Shown: in pieces, positions 1,971 through 44,511 of the stretch | Layout: every line of letters starts with the position of its first letter | Position numbering within the stretch: position 1 is the first letter of the stretch | Origin: Shigella phage Sf13 | Strand: one strand, 5' to 3' | DNA length: 64,000 bases | Sequence record: MF158040 | Program-made: the position numbers and the translations under genes | The notes under the pieces: model-generated | What the model was told of the DNA's origin: nothing | Databases searched by the model: none | What the model saw: the letters and a program-made list of their open reading frames with translations, nothing else

Positions 1971-2391
1971 AGAGGTAGTGCGTAAAGCTTTGCTTAACAA
2001 CGGGACTAAAGATGATATGTACAAAGATATCGTTGCAGAATTTGGTTGTTCAAGACATACTGCAAAGGTTCTTCTTCATAGCTTTATCTGGGAGTGTTCA
2101 GAAGCTTACATGCAATCTGTAATAACTGAAGGGCTTGATATGTCTCTACCTGAACGCTTCAAAGAAGAGACTAAGGCTAGTTCCATAAAGCTAAACACAC
2201 TCTATATTGTAGAAACCGTTGATACAGGTGAACCAGTAGGCACAATACATATTGAAAGTATGTGTGATGGTAAGTTCCTTGGTTATGGTGAAGCAAACGC
2301 ATATAGTGCATTCTCAACCGCACACTGGATAGTTGAAAATGATGGGTATATTCAGGTCAATGGTAAAAATACTTTCAAACTTAAGATGTGA
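1957..2391 (+). CDS. hypothetical protein
   Basis: ORF track 1906..2391 begins with TTG; in-frame ATG at 1957 (MKNVKEV...) has a GAGGA 8 nt upstream and overlaps the upstream stop. Confidence 0.4.
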   Translation: MKNVKEVVRKALLNNGTKDDMYKDIVAEFGCSRHTAKVLLHSFIWECSEAYMQSVITEGLDMSLPERFKEETKASSIKLNTLYIVETVDTGEPVGTIHIESMCDGKFLGYGEANAYSAFSTAHWIVENDGYIQVNGKNTFKLKM

Positions 2392-3059
2392 TTATGGGAC
2401 ACCTACTGAAGAAGAGTTGGAAGAACTTAGCAGATATGGTTCCCCATCTGAAGAGGAAGAGAAAGAACTCCGAAGAATGGGAAGCAATTACTAAGAAATG
2501 TTTTAAGGATTTGATAGAGATGAAAAAGTTTGAACTTGAGAGTAATTATATCACATTTAGTGTTAAAGATGTAGACAGACACTTTACCAAAGATGAGAAA
2601 AGTGACCTGTATCGTCTTATTCATCGGATGAATTATCGTAGAAATCTAACAGGTAAAGAGCCACTTGAAGGTATCTTTGTCAAGAAGTCTTACCCGTTCT
2701 ATGAAGATACTTTGAAGAAACTCGAGATGTATGTTAAGCAGCAGAACCGTAAAGAGTTCTCTATGATTTCTCTTGGTGGACAACAAATGCTGGTTATGGA
2801 AGATATAAACCCTAAAAGAACTAACAAGGGTGTTTGTATCAAGGTCACAGGTAAAGAAGAATTTGTTGATTATGACATACTCAGACACATTATAGATGGT
2901 TTGGGTGCTGCACTGAACATGAATGAATACCATATTAGTTCACACCCGATTAAGGGTGACCAGATAATGATTCAGGTAAGAGAACGCCATAATGGGTTCA
3001 CACACTTCTTCCAAACTTCTAAAACTTCATTGCAAACTATGCTTAGTGAAGTGATGTAA
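2388..3059 (+). CDS. hypothetical protein
   Basis: 223 aa ORF; first codon appears to be GTG overlapping the upstream stop (ATG alternative at 2394); followed by a terminator. Confidence 0.45.
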   Translation: MIMGHLLKKSWKNLADMVPHLKRKRKNSEEWEAITKKCFKDLIEMKKFELESNYITFSVKDVDRHFTKDEKSDLYRLIHRMNYRRNLTGKEPLEGIFVKKSYPFYEDTLKKLEMYVKQQNRKEFSMISLGGQQMLVMEDINPKRTNKGVCIKVTGKEEFVDYDILRHIIDGLGAALNMNEYHISSHPIKGDQIMIQVRERHNGFTHFFQTSKTSLQTMLSEVM

Positions 3060-3067
3060 AACTATAC

Positions 3068-3092
3068 AGCCCCTTAATTGGGGCTTTTTATT
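3068..3092 (+). terminator. rho-independent terminator
   Basis: AGCCCC-TTAATT-GGGGCT hairpin followed by TTTTTATT, directly after the 2388..3059 stop. Confidence 0.6.
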
Positions 3093-4602
3093 GAGTAAAA
3101 TTTACTAAATTTATAATTTTTATAAAATTTGGGATTCACTCCGTTCATCTTGGGTCACCATGATATGTGATAAAATATCTATACCCTTCTAAACACCCTC
3201 TCTAAGCATCATCTCTATATAGTATTATATAGTATCTATATAGCCTCTTAGCCCCTAAATAGTGCTCTCTATATAGCCCTCTATAAAGCCTTCTAAGCCT
3301 ACCATTAATCAACCCTATACAATCACCTTCCTAACCTCTTCATAGCCCCTTAGAAGCCCCTATACTCATCTTAATCTCTAGGTAAACGATAGTACACTAT
3401 ATAGCAGAATCACTAGGTATTACTAAGCCTCTATATAGACTGTTATATAACACTAAACAGGTATTCCCTTCTAAGGCTTATCCTACAAGGTCTAACACGG
3501 TACTAACAAGGTCTCTTATAAGCCTGTTAATTCCTGTTTTATATAAGATAGTGTATAGATAGTTATTCAGTTCTATAAAATTTTTATAAAATAGACTAGG
3601 TAGTGTTTGTTTAGGAGTCTTTGGAGAATCTGAAAAATATCTACTTAGGGTGTATATCTGCTTGGTAGCCCTTAACAGCCCTGTAACATCCCCTTTGCAG
3701 TTTATTAAAATATCATTAACAATTTCTTAACAACTCTCTCAAGCTCTTAACATCTCTTCAGAGTTCTTAACAATCCCTTAACAGAACTAACAAGAGCTTA
3801 ACAAGTCTGTAACGTTGCTTACAAGAGTCTAACAAGTTGCTTATAAGTTGCTAAATAGTTAAATCTTAAGAGTTATTTTGTTAAGATAATTAACAAGGTG
3901 CTAACAAGTTCTAAACCTTTTTAACAGTCTCTTAACATGGTCACTATCTCTTGGTCTATAGTTCCCTATGTTTCTTAGTGATTCTCTATAAAGCCCTCTT
4001 AAAAGCTCTCTATAGCTCTGTATAGCCTCTTCTAAGCTTCTCCCTAGTAACTACACCCCAACTACCTGTATAGCTCTTTATAGGGCTTTCTAGGGGCTTA
4101 TACAGGTACTTCAAAGAGTCTAACAAGCTTTTAACATACCTCTAACAAGGATTTAACAAGGGGCTAACAAGTCTCTAATAAGCATAACTATGTAGCATTT
4201 GTTAAGATTTTGTTAAGAGAATGTAAAGGGGGCTAACTTTTACGTTACTTTTAAGGTTCTTTTACGTTACTTTGAAGACTCCATAACATACTTTAAAGCT
4301 ATTATCAAGCCCCTTTGTAACCATTCACAAGATTCTATCCAGCTTATAAGCTTATACCCTTATAAGATTCTTTTAAGGCTCTAGAAAGCTCTATAAAGGG
4401 CTTTTAAGAGTAGGTTAATATGATTGCTTAAGATGAGATGATAAGCCCGTATAGAGCGTTATAGAGCGTTTTAGGGATTGCCCTTCCCTTTCGGGTTATG
4501 GGCTTATATTTAAGTTGATTTGATAAGAGGATATAGAGTAAGCTATAGAGTTATTATTCTAAATGTATGGGATAGATTCTAGGAAGGTTTCTTTATAGAC
4601 GT
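3093..4602. other. 1.5 kb ORF-free region with short-motif arrays
   Basis: No ORF of 60 aa or more on either strand; + strand visibly G-poor; about 10 copies of (C/T)TAACAAG between 3490 and 4180; many CTATA(A/T)AG(C) motifs; tandem GTTATAGAGCG at about 4455-4480; bounded by inward-facing terminators. Confidence 0.5.
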
Positions 4603-4623
4603 AAAAAGCCCCATCTAAGGGGC
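4603..4623 (-). terminator. rho-independent terminator
   Basis: On the minus strand GCCCC-TTAGAT-GGGGC then TTTTT, just downstream of the 4666..4923 stop; a second GGGGC/GCCCC hairpin lies at about 4637-4651. Confidence 0.55.
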
Positions 4624-4665
4624 TGTAAAGGTGTCTGGGGCTATTTGCCCCGTTGCGGCGACTTG

Positions 4666-4923
4666 TTAGTTATTGAAGCCGTCAACTTCATAGTAAAGCG
4701 TGATAAGAGAATCACCCCAATAGTAAGAGGATTTGCCATCCTTTAAGACTTCTTGTTTTACTTCTTTCCAGAACCACTCAGATTGATTGTAGTCCTGAAT
4801 AGTTGCTTTTAGACACATATCAACCATGCCAAAAACATCGCCAGTTCCAACCATATCAAATTTAACATCTAATACATGGAAGCCAAAATTGTTAACAGTT
4901 GCGTGGATAGTAGCCATTTTCAT
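4666..4923 (-). CDS. hypothetical protein
   Basis: 85 aa ORF preceded by a type B cassette; GGAGA lies only 2 nt from the first ATG, so the second ATG at 4917 may be the real start. Confidence 0.5.
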   Translation of the reverse strand: MKMATIHATVNNFGFHVLDVKFDMVGTGDVFGMVDMCLKATIQDYNQSEWFWKEVKQEVLKDGKSSYYWGDSLITLYYEVDGFNN

Positions 4924-41553: not shown

Positions 41554-41811
41554 GATTGCCTCTGTTAAGTTTCTATAAAGAGTTTAATCTCTTATCTTTA
41601 CGTATTCTATACGTATACTTTAAAGCTTTTAAAAGGCTATTAAAAGTCTTTTAAGGGTTTTAAAGAATCTGTATAGTAAGTCTGTAAAGGGAGTCTATTA
41701 AGATAAAACCCACTTCGCAAAGATTAACACCTTGTCAAGTGCTTTGTCAACTTGCTTTTTCAAAAAAAGTAGAGTAGTGTATTAACCAGACTGATTTGAG
41801 AGGGAGTTAAA
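41554..41811. promoter_or_regulatory. divergent intergenic control region
   Basis: 258 bp AT-rich spacer between divergent genes; repeated (C)TTTAAAG/CTATAAAG motifs, TTGTCAA boxes, GAGGGAG Shine-Dalgarno before the polymerase ATG. Confidence 0.45.
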
Positions 41812-44511
41812 ATGGAAAATGTAGATTTTGAAAACTTGCATTTAGTTGGTGATACAGAAACTGATGGGTTGTTGCTTGAGTTCACAAAAGCTCACGTTAT
41901 GGCCTTTGCAGATTACAAAGATGACAGTGACGAACCTCCTGTTTGGGTATTCACTGATGAACCTATCCTTGGTCACAAGTATACCAAATACATTAAAGGT
42001 GGCTTACGAGAAGGGGTTGAGTTTGCTTTAAAGGCAAAAAGACTTTGCATCCACAATGGTCTGGGTTATGACTGGTGGGTGTTTAACCACATTGCACCTG
42101 ATTTATGGAACTTTGATAATCCAAAGTGTAAACCTTGGGGTGATTTCTTCCAAGACTCACTTATTCAGTCTCGCGTTCAGTGGATGGATAGGCCAACACC
42201 AAAAGGCTACAAAGGTGCTCACGGATTGGCTGCGTGGGGTGCTCGTGTTGGTGTTCGTAAACCTGAGATTGAAGAGTGGGGTGTATGGAATGCAGAAATC
42301 CTTAACCGTGTTGTTGAAGATATCCGCATTAACGCCAAAGCAAAAAGGGCTATGGATAATGAGTATCTAAAACTGAAGAAGTGTGGTGTTGATACTTATG
42401 AAACATACATGAGAGCCAAGGAAACATCTTTTTGGATGAGTCAGCAAGCAATCAATGGTTGGAAAGCTGATATCAACAAAATGAAAAGTTGTATCAAAGA
42501 GTTGGATAAGATGACTTCTGACTTAGCTTCTGAGGTAGAACCATTCTTACCACCAACTATCAAAACAAAAGGTAAAGTTACTGGTGAAGAATTTGCCAAG
42601 TCATGGAATGAGTACGTAGAGACATTTGGTGGTGCAGATGGTTTGAAGAGAATCACAAAGTACCCTAAGACAAAATATCGTCAGCAGGTTCGTAATGGTG
42701 AGATGCAAAGTTACCCTATCAAGCCATATGGAAAACCAACTACAAAGATTTTCAGCATTGAAAAAAGAAATTGCTACACTCCAACTAACACCGTTACTGG
42801 AGAAGAGTACAAAGAAGGTTTTGTAGCGATGAAAGATGCTCGTGCAGTTTGCAATGAGTTAAATGCTAAAGTGGATAAGAAGTGCAAAGATTGGAAGCCA
42901 GTTAAGACAGTGAAGATTGTGAAGTACTACAACAACCATGTAGTTAATCACTTTGGTCTTGAATCAAGTCGATACACAGGATTGATTGATGCACCGTATA
43001 CACCTATTGAGTTTGAAGTGTCACGAATGACTCAGGTGGCTGTTGTTAAGGATTACTTGAAGACTTTAGGTTGGATTCCTGATGATTGGAATTACAAGAA
43101 GGATTCAGATGGTCGTCCTGTGAAAGTTTGTCGATTCAAAGATAACAAGAAAATGATTCGCAAGCACCCAAAATGGGATGAAATGGTTGAGCGTTGTGGA
43201 TTGAACTATGTTGAGCACGAAGGTATTCAGTACATTGAACATAACTGGTCTGTCAAAAAGTACACAGACTTGCTTGAACCTTGCTTGATTCGTACTTCAC
43301 CAAAACTGACTGAATCATCTTATGACACCATTGAAGGTGAACTTGGACAGAAGATTGCGAAGTACTATACTTTGATGCACCGACGCAGAACTATTGAGAA
43401 CTCAAAAGATGATGAAAAGGGCTGGTTGAACCAGATTCGTCCAGATGGTCGTTTGAGTGCTGGTGCAATGGTGTTTGGTACATCTACTGGACGTATGACG
43501 CAGTATGGTATTGTAAACGTACCTTCTGGTGCTGCCGTTTATGGGGAACCAATGAGGGCAGTTTGGATTTGTGAAGAAGGGACAAACGTAGTCTCTGTAG
43601 ATATGAACTCTGCACAGCTTGTTCTTCTTTGTAACTTTATGGGTGATAAGGATTTCACAAAGGCTGTAACTGAAGGTAAAGAAGAGATTGAGTTTGTTCG
43701 TCAAGAAGATGGTCGTTACTATTGCAAACACTTTGATGAATACTTGAACCCTGAAGTTGACAAGTATCTTCGTTATGACCACGAAAATGACCTGTATGTA
43801 GTTTACTCAGGTACTGATGCTCATACACTGAACAGCATCTACTTTAGTTTGAATGATGAGCAGGATATCTTGACTTGTCGTATGACTCAGGATGAAAATC
43901 TTCTTCACGAAATTAGTAAGGGTCGTAAGAAAGCTAAGAATGGTATCTATGCACTGTTGTTTGGTGCAGGTGATGAAAAGTTTGCTAAGACCATTAAAGC
44001 AGCTACCACTCAGGAAGGTGCATTAACTAAACAGACTTACTTTGTGCGTTTGCCGAAGATTAAGAAACTGTTAGACAACTTGGAAGCTGATTTCAAAGCA
44101 ACTAAGAAAGCACTTGAAGAGGTGTTTGGTAAAACTGCTGCAATCTCTAAAGGTGGTTTTGTGAAGGTTGCTGGAGCTTGGCTGTGGTGTAAGTCTCCAC
44201 ACAAGCTGTTAAATTACCTTTTGATGGGTTCAGAAAGTCAAGTCCAGAATGAAGCAATTAACCTTGCATGTCGTAGAGCATATGATGAAGGGTTGATGAA
44301 ACTAAATGGGCGTAAGCCAGCTATTGGAGCTAGACTTCTTCTGGCATACCACGACGAAAATAGTTGGGAATGTCCAGAAAGTATGACTCAAGAAGTTAAG
44401 GCTATTACTGACTGGATGTACGGACAAGCTTCTAAAAACCTTGGACTAAGGAAAGAAACCTTGGTAACAGGTACTGGTAAAGTTGGTAAGAGCTGGTTGG
44501 AAGTTCACTAA
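41812..44511 (+). CDS. DNA polymerase, family A, with 3'-5' exonuclease domain
   Basis: 899 aa; Exo I motif VGDTETDGL; motif B-like KGRKKAKNGIYALLFGAG; motif C-like LLAYHDENSWE. Confidence 0.8.
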   Translation: MENVDFENLHLVGDTETDGLLLEFTKAHVMAFADYKDDSDEPPVWVFTDEPILGHKYTKYIKGGLREGVEFALKAKRLCIHNGLGYDWWVFNHIAPDLWNFDNPKCKPWGDFFQDSLIQSRVQWMDRPTPKGYKGAHGLAAWGARVGVRKPEIEEWGVWNAEILNRVVEDIRINAKAKRAMDNEYLKLKKCGVDTYETYMRAKETSFWMSQQAINGWKADINKMKSCIKELDKMTSDLASEVEPFLPPTIKTKGKVTGEEFAKSWNEYVETFGGADGLKRITKYPKTKYRQQVRNGEMQSYPIKPYGKPTTKIFSIEKRNCYTPTNTVTGEEYKEGFVAMKDARAVCNELNAKVDKKCKDWKPVKTVKIVKYYNNHVVNHFGLESSRYTGLIDAPYTPIEFEVSRMTQVAVVKDYLKTLGWIPDDWNYKKDSDGRPVKVCRFKDNKKMIRKHPKWDEMVERCGLNYVEHEGIQYIEHNWSVKKYTDLLEPCLIRTSPKLTESSYDTIEGELGQKIAKYYTLMHRRRTIENSKDDEKGWLNQIRPDGRLSAGAMVFGTSTGRMTQYGIVNVPSGAAVYGEPMRAVWICEEGTNVVSVDMNSAQLVLLCNFMGDKDFTKAVTEGKEEIEFVRQEDGRYYCKHFDEYLNPEVDKYLRYDHENDLYVVYSGTDAHTLNSIYFSLNDEQDILTCRMTQDENLLHEISKGRKKAKNGIYALLFGAGDEKFAKTIKAATTQEGALTKQTYFVRLPKIKKLLDNLEADFKATKKALEEVFGKTAAISKGGFVKVAGAWLWCKSPHKLLNYLLMGSESQVQNEAINLACRRAYDEGLMKLNGRKPAIGARLLLAYHDENSWECPESMTQEVKAITDWMYGQASKNLGLRKETLVTGTGKVGKSWLEVH

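Follow-up and report, generated by a model that had tools for sequence, protein, structure and literature searches.

What is the function of a region that carries no gene and is better conserved than the genes on either side of it? The question is raised by positions 3093 to 4602 of a 64,000-nucleotide stretch of Shigella phage Sf13 (sequence record MF158040; the whole stretch is referred to here as the window). A sequence-only reading, in which a model inspected the letters and a list of open reading frames (ORFs), had proposed three roles for this region: a replication origin with iterons, a packaging or terminus region, or a binding array for a phage or host DNA-binding protein. The follow-up analysis presented here indicated that the region is very likely the concatemer junction of a Felix O1-like phage of the genus Mooglevirus, with short, exact, non-permuted direct terminal repeats (DTRs) and flanking signals for cutting and packaging. 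The DTR of Felix O1-like phages is already known; what is new is the assignment of the ends in Mooglevirus and the description of a motif lattice inside the repeat.

Felix O1-like phages are widely used against Salmonella, E. coli, and Shigella in typing, biocontrol, and therapy. Most of the records examined open at arbitrary positions; as a result, the genome ends are left unmarked and spurious small genes have been annotated across them. Knowing where the ends lie (3664 and 4233), and which signals are likely to act in cis during packaging, bears on annotation, on the rebooting of synthetic genomes, on packageable vectors, and on the risk of transduction. Furthermore, the region provides a test case, spread over approximately 255 genomes, of how a terminase without a recognized small subunit finds and measures a terminal repeat.

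Probable ends of the terminal repeat

The region is closest to its counterparts in Mooglevirus (Ounavirinae), with 95% identity to Escherichia phage vB_EcoM_3HA14 and Shigella phages Sf17 and Sf18 and 91-92% identity over the region to the Mooglevirus Citrobacter phages Michonne and Mordin. Identity is 87% to Suspvirus phiSUSP1 and 72-79% to Felixounavirus genomes. The rest of the window carries a Felix O1-like gene set, including rIIA/rIIB, NAMPT, NrdD, NrdA, primase-helicase, DNA polymerase, tail fibre, baseplate, and tape measure genes.

Comparison with these relatives located the ends. In several Felixounavirus records the match was cut by the end of the record at one and the same query position, 1141, which is position 4233 of the window. 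The records of vB_EcoM_D4 and vB_SalM_SPJ41 carry exact repeats at both ends, of 581 bp and 613 bp respectively, without a mismatch. In the orientation of the window, these repeats start where …ATGTATATCTGCTT gives way to GGTAGCCCTTAACA… and end where …TGTTAAGGGGGC gives way to TAGCATTTACGTAAC…. The first motif, GGTAGCCCTTAACA, has a single occurrence in the window, at 3664; AAGGGGGC, with TAAC directly after the cut, is also found once and ends at 4233, which places the right end between 4233 and 4234, within 2 nt to either side. The record of UAB_69 has an annotated 618-bp DTR at the same interval, no more than 2 nt from both boundary motifs, and UAB_Phi87 is 100% identical to UAB_69 over that annotated DTR and 100 bp on each side. 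For UAB_Phi87, Bal31 digestion together with run-off sequencing demonstrated a DTR of 608 bp (PMC4837284). PhageTerm gave a 613-bp DTR for the Felix-like phage Ro111lw (PMC6454146) and indicated direct terminal repeats for D4 (PMC11737134), and a DTR had been inferred earlier for Felix O1 (PMC3185647). The role as a packaging or terminus region is therefore the one that gained support, as the DTR boundaries of relatives, one of them with an experimental DTR (PMC4837284), map to two fixed and unique positions in the middle of the region.

An alignment of 16 genomes provided further evidence that these positions are fixed. The left boundary is invariant in 15 of the 16 and coincides, to the base, with the start or end of the DTR in the records of D4 and SPJ41, and the boundary blocks rank with the best-conserved columns. 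Both boundary motifs occur once each in 14 of the genomes, 570-633 bp apart. The DTR lengths in those 14 exceed 570 bp by 0, 1, 10, 11, 12, 20, 43, 44, 53, 55, and 63 bp, which corresponds to steps of approximately 10-11 bp. These steps arise because the number of inverted TGTTAAGAAAA units at the right edge varies in the alignment: two in the window, three in most Felixounavirus genomes, four in heid, and six in Si3. The arrays described below likewise gain or lose whole units between relatives, and a 33-bp unit of the right flank is amplified in Si3. The record version of Erwinia phage Fifi106 (Kolesnikvirus) opens in coding sequence and is uninformative on the ends.

No 16-mer of 3664-4233 recurs elsewhere in the window. 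Thus, the assembly holds a single collapsed copy of the repeat, and the window presents the junction in its concatemeric form. To judge from the sequence, the chromosome in the virion would read, on the + strand, the DTR, then 4234 onward round to 3663, then the DTR again.

A conserved non-coding region with phased motifs

The region was found in 253-255 records of Felixounavirus, Mooglevirus, and Suspvirus, with at least 80% of its length covered in 205. It is non-coding across the approximately 255 records, nearly all of which leave it unannotated. Mean identity to nine Felixounavirus genomes is 0.71 for the left flank, 0.79 for the DTR, and 0.79 for the right flank, compared to 0.56 and 0.48 for the adjacent coding DNA on the left and right sides in the same nine genomes; a neighboring 223-aa protein shares just 45-52% identity with most of its Felixounavirus homologues. 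The comparison with the syntenic region in relatives, which the sequence-only reading had put forward as a check, showed that the locus is retained as non-coding DNA and is better conserved than the genes beside it, as would be expected of a cis-acting element.

The region was first described as free of ORFs of 60 aa or more, and this statement holds with room to spare: no ORF of at least 40 aa is present on either strand, the longest being 36 and 38 aa. The intrinsic terminators said to face inward from both sides were also found, each with its T-run, and the record of Michonne annotates terminators at places homologous to both. Both neighboring transcription units point at the junction and end at these terminators, so the junction is probably not transcribed. 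A promoter scan of the region gave no excess (13 matches vs 10.9 expected). That conserved small proteins or a structured non-coding RNA are encoded here is highly improbable. Small coding sequences are annotated in some records (one of 66 aa in Michonne, several in ESh19/ESh20), and some 120-nt windows fold better than column-shuffled alignments. Against this, there is no shared ORF of at least 40 aa: six of the 16 genomes, that of the window included, have none at all, and in the others the positions mostly differ. An Rfam scan of 2900-4800 (E ≤1) returned one match, with E=0.14 and far under the gathering score, and consensus folding of 48 windows on both strands was weak (best −17 kcal/mol per 120 nt) and attributable to the palindromic motifs. 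The annotated genes CPT_Michonne111 of Michonne (4486-4686) and the small ORFs of ESh19/ESh20 are not conserved in relatives and are probably spurious.

What the region does contain is a dense set of short motifs. The motif (C/T)TAACAAG, first counted as about ten copies, occurs exactly 10 times, only on the + strand, where approximately 0.16 would be expected; the remaining 62.5 kb hold 13 copies on both strands together, which amounts to an approximately 60-fold enrichment in the region. Its shorter core, TAACA, is present 23 times on the + strand and five times on the − strand (2.75 expected per strand), and arrays or clusters of TAACA are found inside the DTR and nowhere else in the 64 kb. 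The copies of CTATAWAG, described as many, number eight on the + strand and seven on the − strand, against nine in the rest of the window; CTTATAAG has four copies in the region and none elsewhere in the window. A wider palindrome-like class, CTWWWWAG, has 22 members compared to 1.14 expected. Measured against the rest of the window or against expectation, the named motifs are well above background. One description needed correction: a tandem repeat is present near the right end of the region, but it is better given as two copies of TATAGAGCGT at 4450-4469, the exact GTTATAGAGCG occurring once, at 4458.

The motifs are also regularly spaced. Base autocorrelation revealed a 10-11 bp lattice across the whole region (z = 8.7 at lag 11 and 8.0 at lag 10) and within 3664-4233 (z = 8.1 at lag 11 and 6.6 at lag 22), while two coding controls gave z ≤ 2.6. 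In the window compared with the nine Felixounavirus genomes, the five positions of the TAACA core are conserved at 0.84-1.0 and the spacers of these 11-bp units at 0.54-0.66. A core that is kept while its spacer drifts is the pattern expected of sites contacted by protein. Two units, at 4154 and 4165, are fully invariant among the Felixounavirus genomes compared. The third of the proposed roles, a binding array for a DNA-binding protein, is therefore plausible and fits a role at the terminus.

Phased direct repeats in one orientation within strongly conserved non-coding DNA could also be read as an iteron-type origin, in which the 11-bp TAACA units would be bound by an initiator of the phage and an AT-rich tract nearby would be melted. 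Such tracts exist, at 3093-3135 and 3574-3595, but repeats and tracts are equally expected of a packaging region. The cumulative GC skew, another check put forward at the outset, does turn at the region; the turn coincides with the switch from + to − strand genes, and no origin is needed to explain it. On a finer scale, the description of the + strand as G-poor is correct for the left three quarters, 3093-4233 (GC skew −0.23 in 3093-3663 and −0.18 in 3664-4233), but not for 4234-4602, where the skew reverses to +0.13. None of the 23 DnaA-box matches in the window (TTATCCACA, at most one mismatch) lies inside the region, and the consensus of IHF, WATCAANNNNTTR, was not found there. Among the ten nearest genes, no match to a known family of initiators or DNA-binding proteins was obtained; PHROGs gave only families without an assigned function, and Pfam gave none above threshold. 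Moreover, the arrays fill exactly the interval that is the terminal repeat in the records of relatives, and the replication genes are located at a distance of approximately 33-40 kb, beside a different conserved intergenic region. The proposal of an origin with iterons thus found no positive support, and that the region is, or also holds, such an origin is quite improbable.

Proposed packaging role and other possible uses of the arrays

How would such a region work as a concatemer junction? Replication would yield concatemers with a single copy of the DTR between successive genomes. The packaging machinery would then recognize the conserved flanks and the phased arrays, with three kinds of recognized units: the 11-bp TAACA(AG) units inside the DTR, the inverted TTAACA units at both of its edges, and the CTWWWWAG units in the flanks and the center. 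In T7-type phages, each concatemer junction holds one repeat; the packaging enzyme recognizes signals there and cuts at both ends of the repeat, of which a second copy is made. The same may happen here, with cuts at the two invariant boundaries and duplication of the repeat. Both cuts could be positioned by an oligomeric protein attached along one face of the helix or with the DNA wrapped around it; this is proposed because the units measure approximately one helical turn, run in a single orientation inside the repeat, and recur as inverted copies exactly at both cut sites. We infer from these features that the arrays are protein-binding sites serving packaging.

A protein of the phage or of the host might use the same arrays for something other than packaging, such as protection of the ends from RecBCD, recombination between DTRs into concatemers, silencing of transcription, or tethering and partition-like positioning. 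Conserved cores with drifting spacers suit this explanation as well, and the 11-bp phasing resembles that of cooperative binding arrays. In addition, a related phased array of CT-(A/T run)-AG units, conserved in 257 records, lies at 41570-41700, which means that this motif class is not specific to ends, unlike TAACA. The TAACA class, in contrast, is confined to the DTR and has inverted TTAACA copies exactly at both cut sites, and is thereby tied to the formation of the ends; furthermore, no partition or end-binding gene was recognized among the ten nearest genes. A non-packaging use of the arrays is accordingly regarded as unlikely.

Phage 3HA14, the closest relative, encodes a terminase large subunit with Terminase_6N/6C domains (T4-type Pfam domains); in the phage of the window, the large subunit gene lies outside the window. 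Felix-like terminases, those of Citrobacter phages included, have been placed in a DTR cluster (PMC4837284). Directly upstream of the large subunit gene in 3HA14 lies a gene for a 68-aa protein (MN342151.1 57698-57904, − strand) that belongs to phrog_4397, a family of unknown function, and has no Pfam match. By its position, this protein is a candidate recognition subunit in a family reported to be without a small terminase. It is possible, although we hold this only tentatively, that the TAACA(AG) arrays are the docking lattice of an unrecognized packaging-specificity factor, for which the 68-aa protein would be one candidate, and that the number of units sets the positions of the cuts and hence the length of the repeat. 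If the arrays prove to be such a lattice, the finding would gain in importance. The same factor or a related one could also act at a replication or transcription control region, given the related lattice upstream of the DNA polymerase gene.

Several points weigh against the region being a concatemer junction with packaging signals. First, the DTR ends of the Mooglevirus window are assigned by homology: none of the Mooglevirus records examined opens at the DTR, and the announcement of Michonne describes its assembly as circular and terminally redundant (PMC4591319). An apparent DTR in a Mooglevirus record, that of Citrobacter phage BSwM KMM2 (OP902295.1), was rejected: the feature that had let this genome count as complete is a 64-bp assembly overlap. 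Second, the cut positions are uncertain by 2-4 nt, as the UAB_69 annotation and the D4 and SPJ41 ends are off by 2 nt on each side. Third, a small terminase was not recognized in 3HA14 with PHROGs or Pfam, and the Michonne announcement likewise reports a large terminase subunit only (PMC4591319). Fourth, the arrays may serve another process at the ends instead of packaging. Finally, the helical-phase power of A/T vs G/C is raised in the region but is equalled at a few other places in the window; it was left out of the evidence since it is not unique there.

Comparison with known systems and feature coordinates

Compared to the Felixounavirus DTRs (UAB_Phi87, Ro111lw, D4, SPJ41, and UAB_69), the repeat of the window occupies the homologous locus, has the same boundaries and flanking blocks, and shares 75-79% nucleotide identity. 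It differs in belonging to Mooglevirus, for which the records and the announcement examined leave the ends unmarked, in its length of 570 bp, which is at the short end of the range, and in the number of right-edge TGTTAAG units, which is two compared to three in most Felixounavirus genomes. A description of the internal motif structure of a Felix O1-like DTR was not found in the searchable literature; the papers found give the length of the DTR only. The PhageMaP paper on Bas63 has no data on this intergenic region.

The T7 junction is similar in form: a short, exact, non-permuted terminal repeat with an iterated short motif inside it and just internal to it, in non-coding DNA. In the T7 sequence, the 160-bp terminal repeat holds three copies of CCTAAAG, and eight more, spaced approximately 13 bp apart, lie at 175-340, just internal to the left copy. 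T7 thus provides a precedent for short motifs iterated within a DTR and next to it. The two systems share no sequence homology. The motifs of the window are TAACAAG and CTWWWWAG, its period is 11 bp instead of 13 bp, and its repeat is 3.5 times longer. Outward early promoters are present at the left end of T7, whereas both flanks here are ends of transcription units. The small terminase of T7 is gp18, while none was recognized here, and the large subunit in 3HA14 matches T4-type Pfam domains.

In the cosB R sites of λ and in pacL/pacR of SPP1, repeated, helically phased boxes for the small terminase lie beside the cut site, and the binding protein is known. The λ cos and SPP1 pac systems produce cohesive ends or headful-permuted genomes. 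The repeated phased boxes near a cut site are the likeness to the present region, which differs in its exact DTR ends, assigned by homology. The centromere parC of plasmid R1 consists of ten 11-bp iterons in two or more clusters that are bound by ParR. Here the likeness is one of form only: no parM/parR-like gene was recognized among the ten nearest genes, and the arrays are placed precisely within a lytic phage's terminal repeat.

The coordinates of the features are collected in Table 1.

Table 1. Features of the gene-free region, its borders, and the second phased array (window positions).
Feature	Position	Strand	Description
Intrinsic terminator, left	3068-3092 (hairpin 3068-3085)	+	Stem AGCCCC/GGGGCT, then T-run; closes rightward gene cluster, last gene 2388-3059
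ORF-free region	3093-4602, 1510 bp		A 469, C 289, G 226, T 526
Left conserved non-coding flank	3093-3663		In the virion, would be unique sequence just inside the right-hand DTR copy
Left-flank contents	within 3093-3663		CTWWWWAG cluster 3213-3300; TAACA pair 3493, 3504; 11-bp direct repeat TATAAAAT 3576-3594; several invariant blocks
(C/T)TAACAAG copies	starts 3503, 3787, 3798, 3829, 3890, 3901, 4120, 4142, 4153, 4164	+	
Left DTR boundary	3651-3677		TGTATATCTGCTT before the cut, GGTAGCCCTTAACA after it; end between 3663 and 3664, ±2 nt
DTR	3664-4233, 570 bp		Placed by boundary motifs of D4/SPJ41 and UAB_69 annotation
Left-edge TTAACA units of DTR	3673, 3684		Two units
Edge-to-edge imperfect inverted repeat	3690-3727 vs 4194-4231		DTR edges mirror each other
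Array A	3717-3860	+	About 13 units (C/T)TAACA(A/G)(G), one orientation; spacing mostly 11 bp, some 9 or 20; right end decays to TTACAAG, TTATAAG, TAAATAG
Array B	3891-3940	+	Four TAACA units: 3891, 3902, 3922, 3933
DTR central block	3984-4100		CTATAAAG, CTTAAAAG, CTATAG, CTGTATAG units about 10-12 bp apart
Inverted repeat in central block	3986-4007 vs 4072-4093		82% complementary
Array C	4121-4186	+	Six consecutive 11-bp units: (C/T)TAACA(A/T)(G/A) five times, then CTAATAAG
DTR right end	4194-4233	−	Inverted TGTTAAG twice and degenerate TGTAAAG; terminates in GGGGGC
Right conserved non-coding flank	4234-4602		In the virion, would be unique sequence just inside the left-hand DTR copy
Right-flank contents	within 4234-4602		TTTTACGTTACTTT twice (4238, 4260); CTWWWWAG cluster 4343-4410; TATAGAGCGT twice, 4450-4469; GC hairpin 4480-4503
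Intrinsic terminator, right	4603-4624 (hairpin 4624-4607)	−	T-run; closes leftward gene cluster, last gene 4666-4923 (−)
Second phased array	41570-41700		CT-(A/T run)-AG units CTATAAAG, CTTTAAAG, CTTTTAAAAG, CTATTAAAAG, CTTTTAAG, CTGTATAG, CTGTAAAG, CTATTAAG, about 10-11 bp apart

The second array lies between divergent genes, immediately upstream of that for DNA polymerase (41812-44511). Conservation over the surrounding 272 bp is 81-88% in almost every one of 257 records, and the record of AYO145A annotates promoters there. Possible explanations are a regulator array, an origin, or a stretch of curved DNA that precedes a promoter.

Two records show peculiarities at the DTR edges. The nanopore assembly of KMM2 stops 16 nt within the true left boundary of the DTR, a hint that a physical end may exist at that point. 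In the alignment of Shigella phage vB_SflM_004 (MK295205.1), unrelated sequence takes the place of both inner DTR edges (3687-3712 and 4190-4233 of the window) and the GGGGGC right boundary is gone; the record has three matching places. This replacement may reflect recombination, a different end specificity, or an assembly problem.

The window is without a tRNA gene; the cluster of approximately 26 tRNA genes typical of the family and the gene of the terminase large subunit sit in the approximately 25 kb of the genome outside it. Within the right flank, the GC-rich nested hairpin (GCCC..CCC-TTTC-GGG..GGGC) is near-invariant in the 16 genomes.

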